From the IMG/VR virus record IMGVR_UViG_3300045988_060465, positions 1 to 48,878 of that record: a stretch of 48,878 bases of DNA. One strand, written 5' to 3'. The position numbers and the translations under genes are program-made. Below, in pieces: positions 1,946 through 25,713 of the stretch (position 1 is the first letter of the stretch; each line of letters begins with the position of its first letter). The notes below the pieces were generated by a model. The model did no database searches. It was given only the letters and a program-made list of their open reading frames with translations, and had not been told where the DNA came from. This DNA comes from a virus.

Positions 1946-2736
1946 ATAAAAAAACCCATCAAAATTCATTAGAACTTGATAGGTAAATGAAACCAGTAAT
2001 AATAGTGTATATATCTTCTTCTTATAGGGTTTGGAAGGCTCTGTGGAGGACGTAGCTCCTTTTTCTTCTTTCCCCCCGAGGTCAAAACCCCTCTTTATCT
2101 CCCCCGAACCTCTTTCCTATTATATATATGTCGAGGGACTAAGATATATCGCTTTTTCAAAGATCAATCGTTTTAAAATATGCAGAATTACTTATAATAT
2201 AGGCTCTGTGTGCTCAATACAGAACCTTTTAAACCATACAATCGACAAGATATAGAATTAATAAAGAATTTCTAAAGGAGTATGAAATGAAATATCTGCC
2301 TATTCATTTCAGTAGTAGTATATGACTACGTGACAATTTATGAACCAACCTAAACCAATTTTGTGTAAACATTATGGAACTTATCGTGTTTATTACGCAT
2401 ATATGACTGTATGGACGTTTCTATATCTCTGAATTTACTTGTTTTTCTTCTTTTCCCCGACATCTGTTGTGATATAAGGGGTTATTTACACGTGTGCCAT
2501 TGCGATTGTAGGGGCTATTGCGTTCCTGGGGGCCATTGAAAACGTAGGGGATATTTTCTATTGAACCTCTAGGGGCACAAATTCTATTGCAACCTACCCC
2601 GTCAATTAAATATTGCACTTACACCTTTATAATATCCTCAGATTTCTCTGAGGCACTCTCAATAAAGAGTAAGTAGAAGTAAAAAATGTCTCGTTAGAAA
2701 GTGGCAATATTTGGTCTTTTTAGGTACTTCCTAACT
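1946..2736 (-). ncRNA. Candidate large structured noncoding RNA of about 790 nt
   Basis: Its own extended -10 promoter at 2743..2773, and a terminator (8-bp stem plus U7) at 1946..1983. There is no credible ORF on the transcribed strand. Patches of 50-55% GC sit in a 33% GC genome. Five iterated CAATRG...CCCCTA units and G-tracts give many potential long-range pairings, and there is a perfect 7-bp hairpin at 2639..2656. Confidence 0.4.
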
Positions 2737-2742
2737 ACATAT

Positions 2743-2773
2743 ATTATACCATTTTTAAGTGCGGACGTGTGAA
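2743..2773 (-). promoter_or_regulatory. Minus-strand promoter TTCACA-19-TGGTATAAT
   Basis: The reverse complement contains TGGTATAAT (extended -10) with TTCACA upstream. It starts the noncoding unit immediately after the terminator of the RHH gene. Confidence 0.5.
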
Positions 2774-2789
2774 AAAACCTATAAAAAAA

Positions 2790-2807
2790 GGCTATTTGTT
2801 GTTAGCC
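2790..2807 (-). terminator. Short hairpin plus U-tract terminator after the RHH gene
   Basis: ggcta...tagcc stem with the stop codon inside it, followed by UUUUUUU on the minus strand. Confidence 0.35.
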
Positions 2808-2995
2808 TCTTTCTTTTCTCTTTCTAAATCTTTTAAGATCAATTGTCTTACGTAATCTGCCTTGCTTGGCACTGAATTTAACTTTTCTAGAATCTCTTTA
2901 TTGTTCTTTGTCACGTATTTCAAGCAAATTTGACTTACGTTCTTTTTAGCATACTTATTGTTTGCTCTTAATCTTGCTTCACTGCTTTTTGCCAT
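2792..2995 (-). CDS. Small ribbon-helix-helix-like DNA-binding protein, 67 aa
   Basis: Pattern of N-terminal basic strand, helix, and KADYVRQLILKDL second helix, typical of Arc/CopG RHH proteins. Confidence 0.35.
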   Translation of the reverse strand: MAKSSEARLRANNKYAKKNVSQICLKYVTKNNKEILEKLNSVPSKADYVRQLILKDLEREKKEANNK

Positions 2996-3009
2996 AGTTT
3001 ACACCCCCT

Positions 3010-3231
3010 CTATTCCATAACATCAATGATATTTGACTTCGGCTGCCAAATACCTCGAACAAAAATAGCTTCTTCGTCCTCTGCTTCAACTTTATCGGTT
3101 TCGATAGTGGTTTCGTGGACGTTATTTCTGTAATATTCCACGTATTTTCCTAAATATTCAGGATTATCACAATACCTTCCGTTATGTCCGTAAACATAGC
3201 CATGTTCTTTTTCCCATTGTTCCTTAGTCAT
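3010..3231 (-). CDS. Hypothetical protein, 73 aa
   Basis: Small ORF in the early operon. Confidence 0.4.
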   Translation of the reverse strand: MTKEQWEKEHGYVYGHNGRYCDNPEYLGKYVEYYRNNVHETTIETDKVEAEDEEAIFVRGIWQPKSNIIDVME

Positions 3232-3257
3232 TTTCTTTTCCTCCTACTTTCTATTGC

Positions 3258-3506
3258 TTAATAACAGTTCTTTTCTTCCCATTCTGCGATTTCATCTGCA
3301 TCATCAATGATTTCGCCATCTTCGCAAACTAGCATTGTTTCTCTTGACCCATAATCGACAATCTGATAATTGTTAGGCAGTTCGTCTGCCCATAAATCCA
3401 CACCAAATAATTCAACATTGAAATCGTCTTTATATAATACGTTTGCTACTGCTTCTACGATTCCTGAATTTGTAAAACTGTGATACCCAATATGTACTTG
3501 CTTCAT
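3258..3506 (-). CDS. Hypothetical protein, 82 aa
   Basis: Small ORF downstream of the promoter at 3550..3586. Confidence 0.4.
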   Translation of the reverse strand: MKQVHIGYHSFTNSGIVEAVANVLYKDDFNVELFGVDLWADELPNNYQIVDYGSRETMLVCEDGEIIDDADEIAEWEEKNCY

Positions 3507-3549
3507 GTTATGCCCTCCTAAGTACCTAAGTACTTTTCTTTACACACAT

Positions 3550-3586
3550 AGTATATCATACCATGATACCTATGTAAATAATTAAT
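3550..3586 (-). promoter_or_regulatory. Minus-strand promoter (TTTACA-17-TATACT / TGGTATGAT)
   Basis: Shares an identical 16-nt box ATAGGTATCATGGTAT (3558..3573) with the promoter at 1653..1681 (1656..1671). Confidence 0.45.
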
Positions 3587-3742
3587 TTAATAAATTTTTA
3601 AATCCTTTTGCATAATAAAAAAGGCTAATTCCACATTCGCCTTTTAAACGTGTTTTTAGCCTTTTCTTTATTTACCCTAACAAATACTCATCTCAATCTA
3701 TTTCGCTTGTTAGAATCACTTCTAGACGTGTTTAAATTGATT

Positions 3743-4036
3743 TTAAGAAGTTTTCCTTCTTTTTCTACGCAAATTATAGTCTTTATCAATCAAAATCTGA
3801 AATATCATTGTTCTGTCAACTAGATATTCAATTCCATCACTATTGAAACCAACGATCTTACACCACCAGCGATTGAAGGTATAAGGTTTAGTCAATACAA
3901 TTTGTACTAATTCAGTTTCATCAAACAAAGTTGCCATTGCCACATCACCTGCTCTTAAACCAATATTGCCATGGTAATTAAACCATCCTCCGCAGGTTTC
4001 TTTGAAATGCTCGTATTCCGTATCTCTTTTAGGCAT
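3743..4036 (-). CDS. Hypothetical protein, 97 aa
   Basis: ORF immediately downstream of the PemK-like gene. Confidence 0.4.
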   Translation of the reverse strand: MPKRDTEYEHFKETCGGWFNYHGNIGLRAGDVAMATLFDETELVQIVLTKPYTFNRWWCKIVGFNSDGIEYLVDRTMIFQILIDKDYNLRRKRRKTS

Positions 4037-4046
4037 TATACAATCC

Positions 4047-4379
4047 TTAAATAATTCCTATTTGAGTTAATAATGCACATTTTACTTCTTTTGCTTCTTG
4101 CCAATCTAATTGCTTGATATGCCACTTAACATTTTCTCTATTGATCGTTAAGATTTGTTCCGCTTTTGCCATTCCGTACTCATATCCTGTATCAATCATT
4201 ACATGGCATGGCAAATCTGTTCTTTTTAAATTGCTAGTAATTGGAATTACATTTACTGTTTTACTCCCTTTATTCTGAATATCGTTTGAAATAACGATAC
4301 AAGGTCTCCTTTTATAAAGAATCGTATTACTATATTTTGGCAAGTCACACCAATAAATGTTATTGTTTAGGATTTTCAT
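4047..4379 (-). CDS. PemK/MazF-family toxin-like protein, 110 aa
   Basis: IYWCDL...KRRPCIVISND...VNVIPITSN...LPCHV...AEQILTI...L pattern matches the PemK/MazF fold signature. GGAGG RBS 7 nt upstream. Confidence 0.6.
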   Translation of the reverse strand: MKILNNNIYWCDLPKYSNTILYKRRPCIVISNDIQNKGSKTVNVIPITSNLKRTDLPCHVMIDTGYEYGMAKAEQILTINRENVKWHIKQLDWQEAKEVKCALLTQIGII

Positions 4380-4488
4380 AATGATAACCTCCTATCCTTC
4401 CTAATTTATCCTCTAAATTTCTGTTATGCTGCTTCAACCCGTATATTTTTCTATCTCTCTCGATTAAAGCCTGTTTAATTAATACCAT
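4360..4488 (-). CDS. Candidate 42-aa partner ORF overlapping the toxin start
   Basis: ATG ORF MVLIKQALIERDRKIYGLKQHNRNLEDKLGRIGGYHYENPKQ whose stop overlaps the toxin ATG by 20 nt. Weak RBS and no recognisable antitoxin fold. Confidence 0.2.
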   Translation of the reverse strand: MVLIKQALIERDRKIYGLKQHNRNLEDKLGRIGGYHYENPKQ

Positions 4489-4585
4489 ATCGTCATATGC
4501 TTCATATAATCCGTTGTCTTTCAGGGCTTTTTCTACATTTGTGAACTACTCGGCTACAAGTAACCGAGAATTCCTGCCTGATTTC

Positions 4586-4828
4586 TTAAAACTTGTCTCT
4601 ACATGATTCATTGCTATCTTCTTCATTCCAATCCATTCCATATACATCATCTACTGTATCATCTACTGCATCATCCTCATTTTCCTTGATTGGAACACGT
4701 ACAATTTTAGTTCCAATTCTATGTGTAAATAAGATGCACACTGCCCAAATTGGATGAACATGAATTACCATGTACGCAGTAAATATCATTACCGCTATAT
4801 TGTGAATTGCCATACTTAAATACATCAT
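4586..4828 (-). CDS. Small membrane protein, 80 aa
   Basis: Two hydrophobic segments and an acidic C-terminus. Confidence 0.4.
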   Translation of the reverse strand: MMYLSMAIHNIAVMIFTAYMVIHVHPIWAVCILFTHRIGTKIVRVPIKENEDDAVDDTVDDVYGMDWNEEDSNESCRDKF

Positions 4829-5100
4829 TTTGCTATTTTCTCCTTCACATATGTAGCTTTCAAATCTTCTACTTCGACCCCTTCTTTACTCCATGCAGCA
4901 TCCCAAATTTCATTTAATAATGAATCTACAACATTGCATGAATCACTGTTATTAACATCAGGAACACTGATTTTCAATTTAATCATTACGTCTGTACTTT
5001 CTTTAGGCTTATTTCGTTTCTTCAAACCCATCATATCCATACCCCCTATGTTGATATTTGTATTTTCTAACTTCATATTCGGCTTTATTGAGATCATCAA
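4825..5100 (-). CDS. Hypothetical protein; the true start is probably an internal Met near 5031-5040
   Basis: The track ORF overlaps 5009..5212 by 92 nt. Internal ATGs follow a GGGG RBS. Confidence 0.3.
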   Translation of the reverse strand: MMISIKPNMKLENTNINIGGMDMMGLKKRNKPKESTDVMIKLKISVPDVNNSDSCNVVDSLLNEIWDAAWSKEGVEVEDLKATYVKEKIAK

Positions 5101-5212
5101 TCAATCTACCATTTTCAAGTTGTAATTCATTGATTCGTTCTGAAACAACTAAGGAATAAAGAAGCATTGAAGCTATTCCACCTATAAATACTCCTGCAAA
5201 GAAATAAATCAT
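5009..5212 (-). CDS. Hypothetical single-pass membrane protein, 67 aa
   Basis: N-terminal transmembrane helix plus a coiled coil. Confidence 0.35.
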   Translation of the reverse strand: MIYFFAGVFIGGIASMLLYSLVVSERINELQLENGRLIDDLNKAEYEVRKYKYQHRGYGYDGFEETK

Positions 5213-5418
5213 CCAACCACCTCACATTTTGCTAGGATGTCTCCAATTAATTCATTATCATCAATTCCTTTAAAATATCCTTTTTCCTTCATCCCATTTA
5301 AAGAATTAAATACTTTAAAACTGTATACATCTTTTGAATACTCTATGAAATCATTGTGTTCCACTTTTAATGAATATCCTAATTCTTCAAACATTTCCTT
5401 AGCACTCATCATAGCCAA
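5209..5418 (-). CDS. Hypothetical protein, 69 aa
   Basis: Small ORF with ATGA coupling to the next gene. Confidence 0.4.
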   Translation of the reverse strand: MAMMSAKEMFEELGYSLKVEHNDFIEYSKDVYSFKVFNSLNGMKEKGYFKGIDDNELIGDILAKCEVVG

Positions 5419-5882
5419 TTCAACTCCTCACATTGTTTATTGATCGCTCTTAATTCAGCAATCGTAATTTCTTTTTGCTCCATAAACCATGAAGCACATA
5501 CTGTTTTTGTATCTAAATCAAATTCAATTAATGCCTCGTCTACATTTTCTGTATGCCTTTCAAATTTGATACATCCATCTTCGATACGCTTTTTATAATC
5601 CAAATCCTTGAACATCTGCTCAGCAGTTTTTTCTTTGTGTTCCTCATCAATTCTTTGGAATGGTGCCCAAGCAACAATAGATTTGCAAGAAACGAACGCT
5701 TCATCATCTTCATCTCTTTCTGAATCATAGAAAGATATATATTCACCAAACTCTTTATGCTCGTCACTATAATAGCAAACCCCATATTCACCTAAAAAGC
5801 ATCCATCTTTATACTTTACTAAATACAAATCACTAAACAGTGGTTTTGATTCGCTAAACATTTTCCATGTGTTCATCTTCAT
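5409..5882 (-). CDS. Hypothetical protein, 157 aa
   Basis: ORF in the early operon. Confidence 0.4.
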   Translation of the reverse strand: MKMNTWKMFSESKPLFSDLYLVKYKDGCFLGEYGVCYYSDEHKEFGEYISFYDSERDEDDEAFVSCKSIVAWAPFQRIDEEHKEKTAEQMFKDLDYKKRIEDGCIKFERHTENVDEALIEFDLDTKTVCASWFMEQKEITIAELRAINKQCEELNWL

Positions 5883-6300
5883 TTTCTCCTTCTAACTTCT
5901 GTCCACAAAACGGACAACGAGGGTAATATTTGTTTCCATGATACGTTGGAATAGGCACAACTCCATGCTTACACGTTGGGCAACATAACATCATATCGCC
6001 ACACGGCCAAAACTCAATATCTATTGGTTTCTTTGGTGTTTCTTTATCCATAAAATCCTTCAATAATTGAAAATATGCCTTGGCACGGTCAGTTTCTTCT
6101 ATATCTGCTGCTTTGCACGTAATTTGATGTTCTTTTTCAAGAACTTGCAACAATTCTTGGTATTTATTCATTTCATCATCCACTAATTCGACATCATCAT
6201 AATCGTGATTTTTAATTTTTCTTAATGCTTCTTCTTTAGAACTTGCTTCTACATTTCCAACATAAGTACATTTTCCATTTGCATAAAATTTATAATTCAT
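5854..6300 (-). CDS. Hypothetical protein with a C-terminal zinc ribbon
   Basis: CCPTC...CPFCG motif. Confidence 0.4.
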   Translation of the reverse strand: MNYKFYANGKCTYVGNVEASSKEEALRKIKNHDYDDVELVDDEMNKYQELLQVLEKEHQITCKAADIEETDRAKAYFQLLKDFMDKETPKKPIDIEFWPCGDMMLCCPTCKHGVVPIPTYHGNKYYPRCPFCGQKLEGENEDEHMENV

Positions 6301-6799: not shown

Positions 6800-7171
6800 T
6801 CAATCATCTGTATCTTCTTCTTTATCTTTCACTAATTCCTCGTATTTATCGGCTATAAATCCATCCATATCTTGTTTTGTGAACCCTAGATTTAATAAAT
6901 CATCTTTATAATTCATTCCATAATTCCATGAATCTATATCTAAATATTGCTCTAGTGAATAGTTCTCAACATCTAAAAATCTACAATTACGTTCTAGAAT
7001 GTGTTTCTTATACTGCTCTATTTTTTCGGCCAAATCATTTATTTCTTTTTTGGCTTGTGCAACATCTTCACTATGTGATTCTTGTTCCTCTTTTAGCCTT
7101 CTTTTTAAATACTCGTTGTTACTTTTTAACAAATCATATGTTTCTAGTGACATTTGAACAAACGCTTCCAT
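6800..7171 (-). CDS. Hypothetical coiled-coil protein, 123 aa
   Basis: ORF. Confidence 0.4.
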   Translation of the reverse strand: MEAFVQMSLETYDLLKSNNEYLKRRLKEEQESHSEDVAQAKKEINDLAEKIEQYKKHILERNCRFLDVENYSLEQYLDIDSWNYGMNYKDDLLNLGFTKQDMDGFIADKYEELVKDKEEDTDD

Positions 7172-18222: not shown

Positions 18223-18251
18223 AAAAAAAGCACTAGAAATTAATCTAGTGC
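18223..18251 (-). terminator. Bidirectional hairpin terminator overlapping the int stop codon
   Basis: gcactaga-aattaat-ctagtgc, an 8-bp stem, with U7 on the minus strand. The int stop sits in the loop. Confidence 0.5.
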
Positions 18252-19340
18252 ATTATCTTTATCCATTAATTTAGCTATTCCTTTATCGGCTTGAGGTAGC
18301 CAATGAGCATAAACACTTAATACAGTGCTTAGATTGTCTCCTAAACGCTTTGCAACGTCATACAAGCTAAAATGTGAGCTTCCATCTCTTACCATATTGC
18401 CAATCATATACGAAGCACATGAGTGTCTTAAATCGTGTATACGAATGATAGGTATTTGTTCTTCGTTGTTCTCGTTTGCAATTTTAATAGCTTCTCTCAT
18501 CCTCGTTCTAACTGTTGTATTGCATACGGGTATATCTATACCGAACACAAATGATTTCTCAGGAACATCCAACATTTCTTTAAATTCTCTATATTCATCC
18601 GATAAAAACTGGGGCATTGTAATTGTCCTATAACTGTTTGGAGTTTTTGGGGTTGTGATTTTATGTAAGTCTTTTGACCATGTTTTTTTAATTGAAATAA
18701 TATTGTTTTCTAAATCCACATCTTCCCAAGTCAAAGCCAATGTTTCACCAATTCTCATCCCCATATAAAATTGATTGTCGAATAGAAGATGATACAAAGG
18801 ATTTTCAACATAAGGAATAAACAAGTTGAATTGTTCCAATGTCCAATACTTCATTTCAACTTTCTTTTCGTTTGGATTTTTAGCCAATTCAACGGGGGAA
18901 CAAGGATTAGTTTCTAAATATCCTTTACGAACTGCAAATCTCAACATCTTATTGATTCTAGATAAATAATTCTTTGCAGTTTCGTATCCTACGTTATTAA
19001 TCATTAATTCCATTGCAACCTCTATATCGTTGGTTGTAATGGATTTTATATTCACATCACCTAAAATATCAATCCATCTTTCAAGCAATCTATTCTGAAC
19101 TCTATAGGTGCTTTCTTTTATTCTCTTTTCTGTATATGCTGCATAGATATTAAGCAATTCCTCAAGTGTGATATTCTTGTATGGGTCTTTCACATTCTCT
19201 TTGAATATGATCTCTGCTTTTACTGCATCTTTCTTTTTTGGAAAGCCACGTTTCTTGTATTGTCTATACTTTCCATTCTTCATTTTGTACGAGCCATAGA
19301 AATACCACGTACCTGTTTTTTCATCTTTTTTTACTGCCAT
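18240..19340 (-). CDS. int: Tyrosine-type site-specific integrase
   Basis: C-terminal HDLRHSCAS...LGD...LSVYAHW with the R..H..R..Y catalytic pattern. Typical N-terminal SAM-like domain. Confidence 0.8.
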   Translation of the reverse strand: MAVKKDEKTGTWYFYGSYKMKNGKYRQYKKRGFPKKKDAVKAEIIFKENVKDPYKNITLEELLNIYAAYTEKRIKESTYRVQNRLLERWIDILGDVNIKSITTNDIEVAMELMINNVGYETAKNYLSRINKMLRFAVRKGYLETNPCSPVELAKNPNEKKVEMKYWTLEQFNLFIPYVENPLYHLLFDNQFYMGMRIGETLALTWEDVDLENNIISIKKTWSKDLHKITTPKTPNSYRTITMPQFLSDEYREFKEMLDVPEKSFVFGIDIPVCNTTVRTRMREAIKIANENNEEQIPIIRIHDLRHSCASYMIGNMVRDGSSHFSLYDVAKRLGDNLSTVLSVYAHWLPQADKGIAKLMDKDNALD

Positions 19341-20488: not shown

Positions 20489-20718
20489 TAGGAAACTCCT
20501 TCTACACTAGTAGACGAACTATTTTATAATTGGCTATCTCGAGCTTGTGTGATATTTAAGGAGCAACACGGTTTTCATTTCCACCAATTATATTTTCGTT
20601 CACGATAGTTCACACTACCATGATTAATTTATGATTGATTTACAACATATAAACCTCTTTTTTGCAGATTTCGTGCAAATACAAGCGTTTCATGTCATAT
20701 TTTGTACATTATGTACGT

Positions 20719-22476
20719 TTATTTGAACAAATTAGCGATTTTTTCAACGATCTTTAGCAACAGTTCAATCAATTTATTGATTCCTGTCACATTGATTTTG
20801 TTTCCATCATCCTTAGAATCATCCTTAGAATCGTCTTTAGAATCATCTTTAGAGTCATCCTTAGAATCTGTATTCGGTTCATCTTTCTTAGGATTTGACT
20901 TATAAAAATCAATATCGTGGAAGATTATATCTTTGTCGATTGGGTTAGCTGCATACTGATGAATAACACCTACACCAGATTGGTCTGATTGAATATTACC
21001 ATCATTCGTACCCCAATTTGCAATCCAAATAGGATATGTTGTTTCTACAAATGTTCCTAGCCAACTAGTACTAGTATAAACACCTGTATAATATCCCTTA
21101 GCACTCATATAGTCGCAGAATACTTTACAAGAGAAAGAACATCTTTCTTTTGTTAAGACACCAGCTTTCTTCTTGTAATTATCTGCATCCTCCATATCAA
21201 ACCATACACCTAATTGAACATTTCTGTCTTTGATTAGATTATATACATACTCTGCTTCCGCTCTAGCTTGACTATCATCTAACGCATAATCATAGCAGTA
21301 CACACCATAAGGAATCTTTAATTGTTCACATTTATCTGCAAAGTATTCAAACTTCTTATCAGTGTATTCTCCATATGAAGCACGCAAAATAACAAAGTCA
21401 TATTTAGATAAATCAATATCAGAACTGTTGTGTTCTGAAATATCAATTCCATATCCCTTAACATTCTTAGTGTAATCTGTTGTAGTTGGCTTAGAAGGCT
21501 CTTTTGTATCTTCCTTAGTATTTGTATCAGGTGCTCTGAATTTCGCCCACATTTGGCTTCTATCCTCTGTCGCAGATACCGCCACAAAGACTTTTCTATC
21601 TCCTTCTTTTCCGACAACGTATCTATGGCCATTCGTTACACACTTCCAATAATATCGAATCTCATCTCCTGAATTGCATTGGCCAAAGATTTCTCCACTT
21701 GGATTGTCGTAGTGTTTATGCACACCATCAACAATGAATGTGGCAATACCATCTTCCTGAGTTAATTCAATGTCTTTTGTTTCAGGAGCACCGATTGTGG
21801 CCCATGGTTCAACACCATATGATTCACTACCGCTAACTGCTGCAAAACATCTAACTCCATTTGTATGAATCCATGAAATCCATCTATGCCCATTTCCAAT
21901 CCATTTTTCTGTATAGACTTGCTTTTCGCCTTTTACAAATGTTCCGTAAGAAGCACCTGTTGGAGTATCTCTATGGATAACGATAGCAGTATCATTTTCA
22001 AATGTTGCCATTCCATTCTCTTTAATCAATTGAGAAGCATCATATGTAGAAGCATTTGTGTAGAATTTAGGTCTTAAATATCCCCAAATAGCACCTTGAT
22101 AGTTTAATGGCCACAACATGGCTTTAGGGTTGCCTAAAACGTTCTGAGAGAGTGCTCTACCTTCCCAATAGATAAATATATGTCCATACCTTGCATCACC
22201 GCCTACAGACACTCCTACGTCACCGTTTTGGGGAGCACCTGTAACAACATCAAAATAGCTTAAAACACCATTATTTGCTCTGTTAAACCACCAATCTTTG
22301 GCATGGCCACGTGCAATACATGGCTTCCCTCCCCATGCCATCAATCCTTGAATTAATGAAACACATTGTCCACCATATGGTTCTTCGCCTTGAACATAAC
22401 TAATGTTCATTATTTGCCCTTTATTGTTAAAAACCTTATTGATAGCATAGTTATAAAACTCTTGTGGAGTTCCCAT
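20719..22476 (-). CDS. Endolysin with CHAP, two SH3b-like repeats and a GH25 muramidase domain, plus a C-terminal acidic repeat and amphipathic helix
   Basis: N-terminal GGQCVSL...YGHIFIY (CHAP Cys/His). Two about 60-aa repeats G(M/I)ATF...G.F. in the middle. GIDISEHN...DFVILRASYG...GVYCYDY...GVWFDMED (GH25). C-terminal (DSKD)5 then GINKLIELLLKIVEKIANLFK. Confidence 0.75.
   Translation of the reverse strand: MGTPQEFYNYAINKVFNNKGQIMNISYVQGEEPYGGQCVSLIQGLMAWGGKPCIARGHAKDWWFNRANNGVLSYFDVVTGAPQNGDVGVSVGGDARYGHIFIYWEGRALSQNVLGNPKAMLWPLNYQGAIWGYLRPKFYTNASTYDASQLIKENGMATFENDTAIVIHRDTPTGASYGTFVKGEKQVYTEKWIGNGHRWISWIHTNGVRCFAAVSGSESYGVEPWATIGAPETKDIELTQEDGIATFIVDGVHKHYDNPSGEIFGQCNSGDEIRYYWKCVTNGHRYVVGKEGDRKVFVAVSATEDRSQMWAKFRAPDTNTKEDTKEPSKPTTTDYTKNVKGYGIDISEHNSSDIDLSKYDFVILRASYGEYTDKKFEYFADKCEQLKIPYGVYCYDYALDDSQARAEAEYVYNLIKDRNVQLGVWFDMEDADNYKKKAGVLTKERCSFSCKVFCDYMSAKGYYTGVYTSTSWLGTFVETTYPIWIANWGTNDGNIQSDQSGVGVIHQYAANPIDKDIIFHDIDFYKSNPKKDEPNTDSKDDSKDDSKDDSKDDSKDDGNKINVTGINKLIELLLKIVEKIANLFK
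20806..20868. repeat. Five tandem copies of a 12-nt unit (ATCCTTAGAATC and variants) encoding (DSKD)5
   Basis: Seen directly. Lies at the 3' end of the endolysin gene. Confidence 0.85.
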
Positions 22477-22488
22477 TTTTCATCCTCC

Positions 22489-22890
22489 TTAGTTTTTTTC
22501 TAGCAGAAAGTCTTGAATCTCATCTCTAGTTTCTTGGAGTTTGTCTTTATCGTTTTCAGAAAGCATATTGTTGATGATCGCAATGTTTGCTTTTAGTGTT
22601 AAATTACCACGTTGCTTATCTTCTTCTAATCTTTCTTCATGTTCTCCTAATCTTCGAGAGTGTTCATTCAATTCTTTCTTAATCCCTTCTTGTGTGATAA
22701 CTAAGCTTTCGATTGATTTTATTCTCTCATTGTCTCTTACTAACCATTCTTCGTGTTTTCTAACGGTTTCTTTTAAATCGTCATTAGGTTTCTTTAGCTC
22801 TTTAATAATCTTTACTACTCCCCAAGCGGAAGCAATGAAACCTAGAAGCCATAAAACATATTCTAAATCAATAGTGATTACTTTTCCCAC
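22489..22890 (-). CDS. Lysis-cassette membrane protein (second holin or holin partner), 133 aa
   Basis: Single N-terminal transmembrane helix plus a charged coiled coil. Lies between the holin and the endolysin. Confidence 0.4.
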   Translation of the reverse strand: MGKVITIDLEYVLWLLGFIASAWGVVKIIKELKKPNDDLKETVRKHEEWLVRDNERIKSIESLVITQEGIKKELNEHSRRLGEHEERLEEDKQRGNLTLKANIAIINNMLSENDKDKLQETRDEIQDFLLEKN

Positions 22891-23309
22891 TATTTTTCAC
22901 CTTTGACGTTGATTTTATCAATTCCGTTGTCTAATTGAATCTTAACGTATTCTTCAATTTCATCAAAAGTACTTTGAACAATTTCACTAATCATTTCTTT
23001 TGTGATAATTCCATGCAAAGCATCAGGAACAAGATCGTATAGTTTACTAACAACTTCTTCAAACTTTTTACCGCCAGCATTAGTTGTATCTTTGTAGTTG
23101 TTCTCTGCTTCTTTAATGTAAACTACTGCTTGTGCAGTGATTTTAGCAATCACTTCTTGAACTTCTTTTGCTTTGGTTTTAGCTTTGGTACTGAATTTAA
23201 AATATAAAGCTAATCCACCGCAAACTAAAGTAGCAGCAGTCTGTAATAAAGTTAAAAAATCTTGTACATTCATAAATTTACACCTCCAAAAATATTTCAT
23301 CTCTCTCAT
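22890..23309 (-). CDS. Holin (LL-H-like, single N-terminal TM with a long cytoplasmic tail)
   Basis: TM helix LLQTAATLVCGGLALYF followed by a charged C-terminal domain. Positioned upstream of the endolysin. Confidence 0.5.
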   Translation of the reverse strand: MREMKYFWRCKFMNVQDFLTLLQTAATLVCGGLALYFKFSTKAKTKAKEVQEVIAKITAQAVVYIKEAENNYKDTTNAGGKKFEEVVSKLYDLVPDALHGIITKEMISEIVQSTFDEIEEYVKIQLDNGIDKINVKGEK

Positions 23310-23387
23310 ATTTTCTGAGGTACTGTTTTATGGCATCTCAATTATATAATGAAAAGAAAAGGACGTACATTAACGCCCTATAACTTA

Positions 23388-23690
23388 TACAATACATTTT
23401 GTGTGATGTAATTTTACATTGTTCTTAGATACTTTAGCATAAATCATTGTTGTAGCAATGCTTTCATGCCCTAAAATAGCTTGGACTTCCTCAATACCCA
23501 TACCTCTATTTAATCCATCCGAAGCGGTTGTATGTCTAATGAGGTGAGGGAATACTCTACGTTCAATACCAGCAAATTCTCCAAGTTGTCCTATTCTTTT
23601 TCAATCCCAAATTTTGATAATCTCTTATACGGACCTGTCCATTAATCGCATTATCAAACGGATGTCCACCTCATTTATATAATAAAATAA
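23388..23690 (-). pseudogene. Remnant of a second, unrelated tyrosine recombinase (C-terminal catalytic fragment, frameshifted, no start)
   Basis: Translation ...KRIGQLGEFAGIERRVFPHLIRHTTASDGLNRGMGIEEVQAILGHESIATTMIYAKVSK carries the box II H.LRH...LGH...Y signature. It differs from the resident int. Confidence 0.6.
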
Positions 23691-23712
23691 AACTAGCTTA
23701 TGAGCTAGTTTT
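23689..23712 (-). terminator. Hairpin at the stop codon of the receptor-binding protein gene
   Basis: aaaactagct-tatg-agctagtttt, a 10-bp stem, with the RBP stop in the loop and a U/A-rich tail. Confidence 0.4.
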
Positions 23713-25713
23713 TTCTAAAATAATTGAAATACACATGTCAACATGCAATTGCCCTGCAACAGGTGTGTCTGTTTTAAGTTTAGCGAAATATGGTAAATAT
23801 TTAATTGTTATTCTAGTATATGTAAGTTGTGGATCATCTTTTGAGGTTGTGACTGTTACATTATCATCTAGCATAAAATAAACATAATCTATTAATTCAC
23901 CTGTACTTTTGTTTTTTAATTTACATGTGTTATCACTTAAATATGATCTCTTAACTGTATAACCTTCTAAGTCTAAATCCCTAACAAAAATGCTATTGCT
24001 ATAATAAGGCGCATCTACTAAATAATCAACATCATATTTAAAATAATAGTCTAATTTTTTAACATTTTTATCTTTGCTTTCTGTTAACACATAATAGTGA
24101 TCTGTTCCATCTTCAATAAGTGAAACATTATTTTCAACGGTTGGTGTAGGCTCTGTTGTCCAAGGGAATATATTTTCGCTCGTATCACTATATTTCTGTT
24201 GAATTTCAACTAAATTAACTTTACCTGTACCGCTGTTGATAATAGGTTTTGTGTCCATGATATTGTTTTCAAGCCATAAACTACACTCTAAATTCGAATC
24301 ACAGATAGATTTTACACTAAGTTCGGAGTTAATAATATTCAAATTAAAATACATATTTGAGACTGAGCTTGAAACTTTTAATATAGTTTTACTAGTCAAA
24401 TTCGATATTTTACAATTATTAAATATAACAGTCATAGGTGCAGCTTCATTATCATCTTCTACGGAAATTAAACATGTTGCTTTACTCAATACAAATATAT
24501 AACAGTTATTAAATGTTAAATTATCATTTGTAGTAAATATTCTTTGTGTTGAATCATTTCTAGTTACTTGAATAATACAGTTATTAAAAACAAAACCATA
24601 ACCTAAACTACCATTTATCATGTTTTCGCCGTGTGAACCGTTTTCATCATAATAAAATGAAGTGTTATCAAATAAATACATTTTACTATTATAATTACCT
24701 GTGCCATGAAATAAATTAGTATTAATAAATTGGCAATTTTTTAATAATGTAGTTTCACGAGAACCTATTAATGTTTCAAACATAATATATAAGTCATCAA
24801 ATACACAATAATTAAATGTTGTATTACATAATTCCCTAACAAACTTCTTATTACTAAAACCGTAAGTATCACGATAAAAACGAACCCCATACACATAACA
24901 ACCACTTAAAGTATCACAAAATTCATTATCAAGTAATTTTATTTGTGAGTGAATACCAATAATATTAACTGCTATAATGTCATTTAATTTACTTTCAATT
25001 ACATATGTTTTATTACTTAATAATACGTATTTTCCTGTTTCCATTGCCTTAGCAAAACAAGTATTAAATGCTGAACTATCGTTAGTAGTACCGTCACCAA
25101 TAGCACCGAATTCTTCTGGTGTAACATACACATTTTCAATATTTACTGTACGGTTTTCATCAGGCGGTATCGTTACGTTATTAACCTTGATTGCTTTAAT
25201 AGGTATTAATTGATCTACAACTTCTTGCTTAATATATCCAGCATCATTTTGAAGCTCAGATACATTTTTAGGAATTTCAGTTTTCTTTGCATAAACACTA
25301 GCTAAATCTAAATTTACAATATAATCAACAGGACTAATCGTATTTCCATCTAATTTAATAGTTGTGATAGGCACTTGAATAGCAATGTTTTTGTCGTTGT
25401 CTTTGGCAATGTTTGTCCCGTTTACAGAAATTGTCTTTACGAATTGATTTAGAATTTCCATTAAATCCAATTGATTAGAAATATCGCCAATCATATTTCC
25501 CCATTTGATTTTCAGATTCGCATGGTCATTGATTACTTGAATTTCTTTTCCATTGTAGATATAGAATAATCCTTTTGAATCAACATACGCATGGTCTCTA
25601 CTTGGATTAGTAATATCATCTACAGAATCAACGATTTCTAGCCAAAATTCGCAATCACCGTCTTTTAAAGGGAATACTACTGCCATATCTTTGTTACATA
25701 CTACAGGTTGCAT
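23698..25713 (-). CDS. Receptor-binding tail fiber/spike with a pectate-lyase-like right-handed beta-helix domain
   Basis: VTPEEFGAIGDGTTNDSSAFNTCF...GKYVLLSNKTYVI matches the pectate_lyase_3 N-cap. Very N-rich beta-helix repeats. Last large tail gene. Confidence 0.65.
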   Translation of the reverse strand: MQPVVCNKDMAVVFPLKDGDCEFWLEIVDSVDDITNPSRDHAYVDSKGLFYIYNGKEIQVINDHANLKIKWGNMIGDISNQLDLMEILNQFVKTISVNGTNIAKDNDKNIAIQVPITTIKLDGNTISPVDYIVNLDLASVYAKKTEIPKNVSELQNDAGYIKQEVVDQLIPIKAIKVNNVTIPPDENRTVNIENVYVTPEEFGAIGDGTTNDSSAFNTCFAKAMETGKYVLLSNKTYVIESKLNDIIAVNIIGIHSQIKLLDNEFCDTLSGCYVYGVRFYRDTYGFSNKKFVRELCNTTFNYCVFDDLYIMFETLIGSRETTLLKNCQFINTNLFHGTGNYNSKMYLFDNTSFYYDENGSHGENMINGSLGYGFVFNNCIIQVTRNDSTQRIFTTNDNLTFNNCYIFVLSKATCLISVEDDNEAAPMTVIFNNCKISNLTSKTILKVSSSVSNMYFNLNIINSELSVKSICDSNLECSLWLENNIMDTKPIINSGTGKVNLVEIQQKYSDTSENIFPWTTEPTPTVENNVSLIEDGTDHYYVLTESKDKNVKKLDYYFKYDVDYLVDAPYYSNSIFVRDLDLEGYTVKRSYLSDNTCKLKNKSTGELIDYVYFMLDDNVTVTTSKDDPQLTYTRITIKYLPYFAKLKTDTPVAGQLHVDMCISIILEKTSS

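Follow-up and report, generated by a model that had tools for sequence, protein, structure and literature searches.

A tyrosine recombinase relic at the fibre/lysis junction of a metagenomic phage, and its intact counterparts beside exchangeable fibre-tip cassettes

The IMG/VR virus record IMGVR_UViG_3300045988_060465 (the whole 48,878-nt stretch analysed here, referred to as the window, on whose numbering the relic coordinates are given) carries a pseudogene fragment of a tyrosine recombinase in the spacer between its tail fibre/receptor-binding protein (RBP) gene and its holin-like gene. The fragment is best explained as the inert 3' relic of a resident recombinase without an arm-binding domain (armless), which served exchangeable fibre-tip cassettes and was cut by an incoming fibre gene; we put the probability of this explanation as a whole at about 0.8. 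Its derivation from an RBP-cassette recombinase appears well supported by homology and by gene context. Taken alone the relic is a routine pseudogene, and its value lies in pointing to this context.

The relic and its intact counterparts

The genes around the spacer are all found on the minus strand in the open reading frame (ORF) calls for the window: a fibre/RBP gene of 671 aa (25713..23698), the spacer of 388 bp (23697..23310), and a holin-like gene of 139 aa (23309..22890), which is the first of the lysis cassette and is assigned its function by position only, having no Pfam match. Translation of the spacer gave KRIGQLGEFAGIERRVFPHLIRHTTASDGLNRGMGIEEVQAILGHESIATTMIYAKVSKNNVKLHHTKCIV, with a stop codon at either end, in one frame and TGPYKRLSKFGIEKE, ending in a stop codon, in the adjacent frame; a stop codon precedes the main peptide. 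This reproduces exactly the peptide of the original prediction, which was said to be without a start codon and to carry a frameshift. A 71-aa stretch of the relic matched the last third of the PF00589 profile (positions 113-171 of 172) with E=1.8e-13 and 51.1 bits (cut-off 27.1), a score well outside what chance would give and in agreement with the proposed dead 3' fragment of a tyrosine recombinase bearing the H.LRH...LGH...Y box. Alignment with intact genes in sibling phages sets the limits of the remnant at 23658..23385 (minus strand), from codon ~244 to the stop codon (23387..23385) of a 337-codon reading, slightly longer than the peptide first described; these ~94 C-terminal codons encode the H-x-x-R-H, LGH and Tyr motifs. 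The 86-aa reading obtained by joining the two frames aligns over 97-99% of its own length with phage recombinases, and therefore the frameshift is genuine. It is caused by a 1-nt deletion in an A5 run (23601..23597, minus strand), identified by DNA alignment and three-frame translation; the sibling locus L034 has A6 at this position and intact genes read GAGAAAAG.

The catalytic residues that are retained (23546..23439, minus strand) comprise the His (23546..23544), Arg (23537..23535) and His (23534..23532) of HLIRH, the His of LGH (23468..23466) and the nucleophile Tyr (23441..23439), the respective columns of which (H285, R288, H289, H311, and Y320) are invariant over 25 homologues. The full set R-K-H-R-H/W-Y is not present in the relic, Arg-I (R194) and Lys-beta (K218/K221) having gone, and the frameshifted fragment has neither a core-binding domain nor a start codon. 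A terminator scan showed it to be bracketed by two terminators on the minus strand. The first is the hairpin previously noted on the RBP stop codon (23700..23698), a terminator-like structure at 23712..23689 with a 10-bp stem, a 4-nt loop and a T-rich tail (-12.9 kcal/mol, z = -3.2); the second, an intrinsic terminator at 23379..23360 (fold z = -4.2), begins 5 nt past the relic stop and was the recombinase gene's own, as it is conserved in alignments of intact and remnant-bearing siblings. No sigma-70-like promoter above chance was found in the relic region. The relic is almost certainly inert at present: placed between two terminators, it has lost the start codon, the DNA-binding domain and two of the catalytic residues.

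At the DNA level neither the spacer nor a 24-kb stretch had a match among GenBank phages, a genome-contig scan gave nothing above 50% identity, and the phage family of the window is known only from metagenomes. Using the holin-like protein as an anchor, 46 closely related IMG/VR loci (holin identity 94-100%) were recovered and examined within ±7 kb. The distance from fibre start to holin in these siblings ranges from 2.4 to ~6 kb, and three main layouts, types A, B, and C, occur at the fibre/holin junction. Type A, which comprises the window and 11 loci, has a single long fibre gene, a terminator and a recombinase remnant. The 671-aa fibre/RBP protein of the window gave weak PHROG tail-spike and colanic-acid-degradation matches; its N-terminal ~193-239 aa are common to the sibling phages, where the first 579-718 nt are 91-97% identical, whilst its C-terminal part is tailspike-like and hypervariable. 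Type B (11 loci) consists in its full form of a 220-aa short fibre, a 496-aa FN3 protein, an RBP of 275-706 aa in which the 48-aa N-terminus is constant and the C-terminus variable, and a recombinase gene that ends 83 nt before the holin start. The exceptions are L021 and L032, from which most or all of the RBP cassette is missing, and L014, which has a different upstream backbone. Type C (~21 loci) is without the recombinase and has in its place a diversity-generating retroelement (DGR) made up of a 394-aa target gene, a 147-aa small gene, a template repeat and a reverse transcriptase, in which the variable repeat differs from the template solely at template adenines. In L004 the DGR occupies 2200-5950, with a 123-nt variable repeat (3473-3595) at the 3' end of the 394-aa protein (DUF6273), the template repeat at 4148-4270, the small gene alongside and a reverse transcriptase of 347 aa (4458-5501); it is found in ~20 other siblings (e.g., L009, L010, L013, and L015).

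The recombinase gene is intact (337 aa) in seven siblings (L005, L008, L012, L014, L021, L032, and L042), and the relic is 91.5% identical over its last 71 aa to these proteins at the matching position. The comparison of the junction with related phages that had been proposed earlier thus finds an intact recombinase at that place, and no conserved ORF of greater length and non-recombinase nature runs across 23385..23658 in the siblings. Other copies are broken (an in-frame stop in L003 and L018, a frameshift plus a stop in L031) or shortened (5'-truncated in L007, reduced to the last 51 codons in L027), and more independent fusions and internal deletions occur among metagenome gene calls (P0002, P0012, and P0016). 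A remnant of the type seen in the window is present in twelve loci.

The window fragment is too short for a class to be determined directly and is assigned via its 91.5% C-terminal identity, the gene tested being the intact copy of sibling L008 (L008:4904-5914). The L008 protein passed the cut-off of NCBIfam NF040815, the XerA-type “site-specific tyrosine recombinase/integron integrase” (231.8 bits, cut-off 220), and failed those of XerC (TIGR02224; 188.8, cut-off 335), XerD (TIGR02225; 177.5, cut-off 330) and the integron integrases TIGR02249 (78, cut-off 265) and NF011946 (50, cut-off 435); the term “integron integrase” in database names stems from the NF040815 product name. It is comprised of a SAM_4 core-binding domain and a Phage_integrase catalytic domain, the arm-binding domain being absent, and the solved structures closest to it are XerA, XerC and XerD. 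Tyrosine-recombinase domains alone were found in the window and the sibling gene, with no serine resolvase N-terminal domain. The window also encodes a separate, resident arm-type tyrosine integrase of 366 aa (19340..18240, minus strand; Arm-DNA-bind_4, Phage_int_SAM_3 and Phage_integrase domains), to which the intact sibling recombinase has 26% local identity over 117 aa and from which it differs in domain make-up. By sequence the relic family is only remotely related to this enzyme and is a different subfamily, in support of the original prediction on this point.

A full-length query retrieved more than 2000 homologues, mostly of 330-331 aa, from ~50-kb phage contigs and Lachnospiraceae-type genomes. 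An earlier idea of a conserved mini-protein, for which the 86-aa query had returned short homologues only, was dropped once the full-length query gave this ~331-aa family; the short homologues are independent truncations, fusions or contig-end fragments. Among the intact alleles of the sibling family the ratio of non-synonymous to synonymous substitution rates (dN/dS) is 0.11-0.12 at a dS of 0.53-0.70, which shows that the gene is under purifying selection now or was until recently. Between relic and intact alleles dN/dS is ~0.2 (9-10 synonymous and 7-9 non-synonymous differences), and most of the divergence of the relic is likely to predate its inactivation. A dS of ~0.6 under purifying selection within the phage family points to long residence and not to a recent insertion. 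The order RBP, recombinase, holin/lysin recurs in lineages with recombinases 48-66% identical to the sibling gene (L047-L050, L051-L054, 80 IMG/VR loci, and the Terrisporobacter phage TPELB_ph1), and separate integrases lie 3' of the lysis genes in L095, L119, and L121 (tyrosine type) and in L102 (large serine type). The recurrent synteny and the separate integrases together argue that the Xer-like gene is an old, syntenic and resident accessory of these phages, neither foreign nor the integrase.

Fibre-tip cassettes and recombination sites

The distant lineage that includes L047 and L049 has a multiple-inversion shufflon of fibre tips. L047 has a fibre-tip gene of 167 aa, after it an ORF of 141 aa that is convergent with it, and next the recombinase and an amidase; the site copies, at 7147(+), 7880(-), 10207(+), and 10899(-), have the core ATGAAC[T/A]AAATAGCAA[A/G]T. 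L049, which comes from another sample, encodes a recombinase protein identical to that of L047, with the four C-terminal cassettes redistributed: the order site1-A; B-site2; rec; amidase; site3-C; D-site4 in L047 becomes site1-D; C-site2; rec; amidase; site3-B; A-site4 in L049. The moved segments are 99.7% identical in inverted orientation, their breakpoints lie exactly at the sites, and two inversions (site1×site4 and site2×site3) interconvert the two arrangements. It is L047, L048 and L050 that differ by inversion from L049. The shufflon extends over L047:6994-10920 and L049:7035-10961, the invertible region spanning the recombinase and amidase genes.

The site is not confined to this lineage. 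A generalised motif, TANTNAAYTAAAKRR, has 67 exact matches in 1.08 Mb of recombinase-bearing loci, for which a rough composition-based estimate of the chance expectation is ~1.5 matches. Nearly all of them fall at two positions, a + copy in the fibre gene and a - copy 180-570 nt upstream of the recombinase start, a pattern seen in at least 20 loci of several clades. Inverted sites around alternative RBP C-terminal cassettes are seen only in clades more distant from the window, in L047-50, L105, L107, L116, L118, L120, L122-L126, L128, L129, L131, L132, and L134. In several lineages of the clade with 61-66% identity a ~60-nt palindromic element is also conserved near the recombinase, either ~176-246 nt upstream of its start (L069, L090, L094, L095, L097, L098, L099, and L133) or ~1180-1313 nt downstream of it (L116 and L118).

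Within the window's own family, type B loci carry the motif twice in direct, not inverted, orientation. Site 1, GTTAGTCAACTAAAGGAAGATTTA, which codes for GVSQLKEDL, is the exact point at which the RBP alleles diverge in alignments, and site 2, TAGTTAACTAAATAAGAATTTA, just past the RBP stop and ~190 nt before the recombinase gene, is the exact point at which they converge again; the two differ consistently in their centres (AAAGGAAGA vs AAATAAGAA). The slot between them is filled by seven unrelated families of RBP C-terminal cassettes in genomes that are otherwise 95-99% identical. When the cassettes were looked for in other phage backbones as a sign of mobility, c9 proved to be the sole one shared (L005, L012, and L014); the N-terminal region attached to it in L014 is a different one, with the joint lying exactly at the site. 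L012 and L014 lie 51.6 kb apart on one contig of 74.9 kb (IMGVR_UViG_3300045988_099134), which thus has two copies of the cassette, recombinase and holin region with different upstream tail genes and with RBP N-termini that differ up to a joint exactly at site 1; this contig represents either tandem related prophages or a chimeric assembly. Two deletion joints also involve the sites: in L032 site 1 is fused to the sequence just past site 2 and the cassette is gone, and in L027 site 2 is fused to codon ~287 of the recombinase. Within the family the motif is confined to loci with a full-length or near-full-length recombinase or to the L027 remnant fused to site 2, and none was found in any type A or type C locus, nor in the window. 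The attL/attR of a cassette were suspected in a direct repeat of 32 nt (core AATGTATTGTA) that occurs both at the 3' terminus of the recombinase and ~4 kb upstream; this reading was rejected, since the repeat belongs to the coding sequence of the conserved FN3 gene and is found whether or not a locus has the recombinase.

Several observations count against a recombinase at work on fibre cassettes in this family. No inverted site pair, minus-strand cassette or inverted segment (no minus-strand high-scoring segment pairs) was found among the 46 siblings and the window, and thus the activity of the recombinase in the window's family, on direct sites, is something we infer and have not seen. Most loci of the 61-66% identity clade are without a recognisable site pair. 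Three phages whose available flank contains no recombinase also have the exact site-1 23-mer in fibre genes; site 1 may in part be a conserved coding motif, SQLKEDL. Homologous recombination between conserved flanks can also yield a sharp constant/variable boundary. The L032 joint retains the whole site-1 centre and may have arisen by deletion at a microhomology and not by canonical strand exchange. The gene is often inactivated in this family, and the recombinase is thus dispensable there. The three phages have the 23-mer, oriented +, at L149:7573, L152:8919, and L157:3760 and 5127, in large fibre genes with different flanks, and L157 has a site-2-like copy directly after the fibre gene.

The reaction that the enzyme carried out in the window's family may have been an inversion that was later lost, excision or cassette exchange. 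A more specific proposal is that it was an integron-like cassette exchanger, or one resembling recombinase-mediated cassette exchange, and not an invertase, with cassettes excised and swapped between co-resident phages. If true, this would account for the seven unrelated cassettes in genomes of 95-99% identity, and the window relic would record the loss of the exchanger when a fixed tailspike took over; we regard it as a tentative and rather unlikely proposal.

Origin of the relic and alternative explanations

The junction itself suggests how the relic arose. The type A and type B fibre genes have their first 579-718 nt in common, after which ~1.3 kb of type A is different and of highly variable, tailspike-like sequence; the type A fibre then ends with its own terminator and abuts the recombinase at codon ~244. 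The truncated state of the gene cannot be the original one, and type A therefore goes back to an ancestor with the recombinase, in which the region from mid-fibre to mid-recombinase was replaced. The 5' boundary of the relic is at codon ~244 in the window, L001, and L034 and at codon ~265 in L036-L045 and L011, and these two boundaries within type A indicate a further deletion.

The relic is best explained by a phage-resident, armless Xer-like recombinase, the gene of which normally lies between the distal RBP gene and the lysis genes. In relatives this enzyme family acts on short sites of the form TANTNAAYTAAAKRR, one at the constant/variable junction of the fibre gene and the other ~200 bp upstream of the recombinase gene; where the sites are inverted, fibre C-terminal cassettes are flipped, as in a shufflon, and in the window's family direct sites bracket a slot filled by many different RBP C-termini. 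In the lineage of the window a long tailspike-like fibre with its terminator took the place of the short fibre, the FN3 protein and the cassette RBP, together with the first ~243 codons of the recombinase, the swap presumably occurring by illegitimate or homologous recombination. Codons ~244-337 were left behind and later acquired the 1-nt frameshift. The direction of the event is the reverse of that first proposed: the long fibre and terminator were incoming, and the 5' three quarters of a resident recombinase were overwritten. The original prediction had offered either a mobile-element insertion or a module swap, and it is the module swap at the fibre/lysis junction that stands, the insertion not being supported, given a native, syntenic gene.

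It could be argued that the gene was instead a second prophage integrase, or an Xer-type recombinase for dimer resolution, unrelated to fibre variation and adjacent to the RBP gene by coincidence. The database names “integrase” and “XerC/D-like” agree with this, as do the inverted sites missing from most loci of the 61-66% clade and from all loci of the window's family and the position of the gene near prophage or contig ends; in L051-L054 and many IMG/VR prophage contigs the recombinase gene lies 1.5-5 kb from such an end, with host genes (truA and recJ) directly after the lysis cassette. However, the window, TPELB_ph1, L095, L102, L119, and L121 each have a canonical integrase besides, of the arm-type tyrosine or the large serine kind, and the recombinase has no arm-binding domain. 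At least 20 loci, moreover, have the motif within fibre genes where the constant part meets the variable one, and cases of inversion between sites so placed are on record. A coincidental neighbour of this kind is quite improbable, and with the relatives adjoining invertible or exchangeable fibre-tip cassettes, the description of the gene as a moron or second integrase does not hold.

The fragment had been interpreted as the fossil of a foreign integrase, left when a mobile element or moron entered the interval between fibre gene and holin gene. The junction is indeed a hot spot, at which siblings have a DGR, an insertion sequence (IS) element (L011) and many indels, and the subfamily of the fragment is not that of the resident integrase. 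However, its position, orientation and downstream terminator are constant from the siblings to many distant lineages, neither element cargo in the flanks nor att-like direct repeats came to light (the sole candidate repeat being coding sequence), and the alleles have diverged to a dS of ~0.6 under purifying selection within the phage family. A gene that is intact and syntenic in the siblings (dN/dS 0.11-0.12), and whose order recurs at 48-66% identity, was most probably not foreign, and we consider a foreign origin very unlikely.

Least credible of all is that the remnant has been kept for a function, be it as a homology anchor for RBP swaps, a regulatory or RNA element before the lysis genes, or a small peptide: in ten type A genomes it differs by only 0.29% pairwise, when the holin differs by 3.3% and the fibre 3' end (last 600 nt) by 17.8%, its last ~120 nt are near-invariant even between remnant and intact alleles, and some type A siblings have an AGGAGGT-ATG just upstream of it, one frame off, but the adjacent structural gene c8 is equally uniform (0.58%), so that low diversity fits the whole structural module and was set aside as a sign of function, type C siblings keep the same holin upstream region without the remnant, which is thus not needed for expression of the lysis genes, and the remnant is frameshifted in the window, has a 5' boundary that varies between type A subgroups and lies between two terminators with no promoter above chance. 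The upstream arrangement is seen in L036-L038 and L043-L045 (~5640-5700) and in L011 (~5660-5700), where a stretch resembling a ribosome-binding site (AGGAGGT or TGAGGTGG) precedes the relic and is followed 7-8 nt later by ATG GAT/AAT AAA AAA GAA TAG, one frame off the recombinase across the A6 run. A -1 slip there would give a peptide of ~75 aa; the arrangement, which is absent from the window, is probably due to chance, and the peptide was discarded as unsupported.

Relation to known systems and other features of the loci

The closest described system, judged by layout and description, appears to be the Rin shufflon of Bifidobacterium prophages, in which an XerD-like armless tyrosine recombinase is encoded beside the RBP genes (Mavrich et al. 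2018, Sci Rep 8:12772, PMC6109161). Rin was described as the first phage-encoded tyrosine invertase, and the same paper includes a rin gene with an internal stop codon (PMC6109161); a Rin-type shufflon was later noted in Eggerthella lenta prophages (PMC8778435). Common to both systems is an armless recombinase next to the RBP genes and apart from an arm-type integrase, a combination found in the siblings and many lineages and of which the window has only the relic and the resident integrase left. Further similarities are the constant RBP N-terminus with variable C-terminal cassettes joined at a short repeated site, the natural inversion variants at the sites (here L047 vs L049) and the internal stop in the recombinase gene (here L003 and L018). 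The systems differ in that the hosts here are Clostridia (the relatives are named Lachnospiraceae, Mediterraneibacter, and Terrisporobacter) and not Actinobacteria, and in the site, TANTNAAYTAAAKRR as opposed to the 11-bp TTCCCTAACCC of Rin. In the present phages, moreover, the recombinase lies between the RBP and lysis genes (the invertible region of L047 spans the recombinase and endolysin), the window's family has direct sites around a single exchangeable cassette, and the window itself has only a dead 3' fragment and no site. Full-text literature searches found no account of a counterpart to Rin in Clostridia phages.

Other comparisons are more distant. In the shufflon of plasmid R64 the tyrosine recombinase Rci acts at sfx sites, and multiple inversions swap PilV C-termini onto a constant N-terminus. 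By description this resembles the present system in its tyrosine recombinase, its short asymmetric sites within a coding region and its exchange of adhesin C-termini; the R64 product is however the tip of a conjugative pilus and not a phage fibre, and the C-terminal extension of Rci is distinct. Gin (Mu G segment), Cin (P1 C segment) and Min (p15B) likewise make host range phase-variable by inverting fibre C-terminal cassettes beside the invertase gene, with a similar layout of constant fibre part, convergent cassettes and recombinase, but they are serine resolvases/invertases with a Fis-dependent enhancer, in contrast to the Xer-like tyrosine recombinase found here. XerA, XerC and XerD (PDB 4A8E, 1A0P, and 5HXY) provide the best sequence and domain match to the two-domain armless architecture of the sibling protein; the sibling gene differs in being phage-encoded at the fibre/lysis junction and in a ~65-residue N-terminal extension, and the sites of the phage family are inside fibre genes and not at dif.

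Among cultured phages, TPELB_ph1 has the same arrangement, a 577-aa protein at the RBP position, a 331-aa Xer-like recombinase (CDS0023, PP197244.1), a holin, an endolysin and a second integrase on the opposite strand. CDS0023 is intact, 42% identical to the window remnant and labelled “integrase”. Two genes of this locus (L158; PP197244.1 17645-22112) are annotated as “integrase”, the 331-aa gene between the RBP-position gene and the holin and a 527-aa gene after the endolysin on the other strand, and the former is probably misnamed. More generally, many gut Clostridia phages have, between tail fibre and lysis cassette, a gene named only “integrase” or “XerC/D-like”; these genes form one conserved, widespread and RBP-linked family, which appears to be a fibre-switching enzyme and whose members are accompanied either by inverted sites, as a shufflon, or by direct sites around a cassette slot. 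This extends to phages of Firmicutes an RBP switch by tyrosine invertase for which prophages of Actinobacteria had been the described cases. It is at a single junction in near-identical phages that three routes to host-range variation are found, namely a hypervariable tailspike (the window), a cassette slot with its recombinase, and a DGR, which is of relevance to gut virome annotation, host-range prediction and phage engineering.

Some further features of these loci were noted. In L011 a DDE transposase of 497 aa (L011:4008-5501, minus), representing an IS element, lies between the long fibre gene and the recombinase remnant and is accompanied by a 46-nt duplication of the fibre 3' end and terminator. 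L008 has an exact 168-nt tandem duplication (L008:607-942; 99% identical) in the conserved N-terminal fibre gene, which lengthens the product from 220 to 276 aa. In the window, the region 3' of the holin-like gene contains a 133-aa ORF, then a GH25+SH3 endolysin (22476..20719, minus) and, further on, the resident integrase. The 3' end of the endolysin gene (20719-20800, minus) is a short DSKDD repeat tract, the opposite strand of which reads as an ORF of SLESS repeats (20702..20905), an artefact of the repeat.

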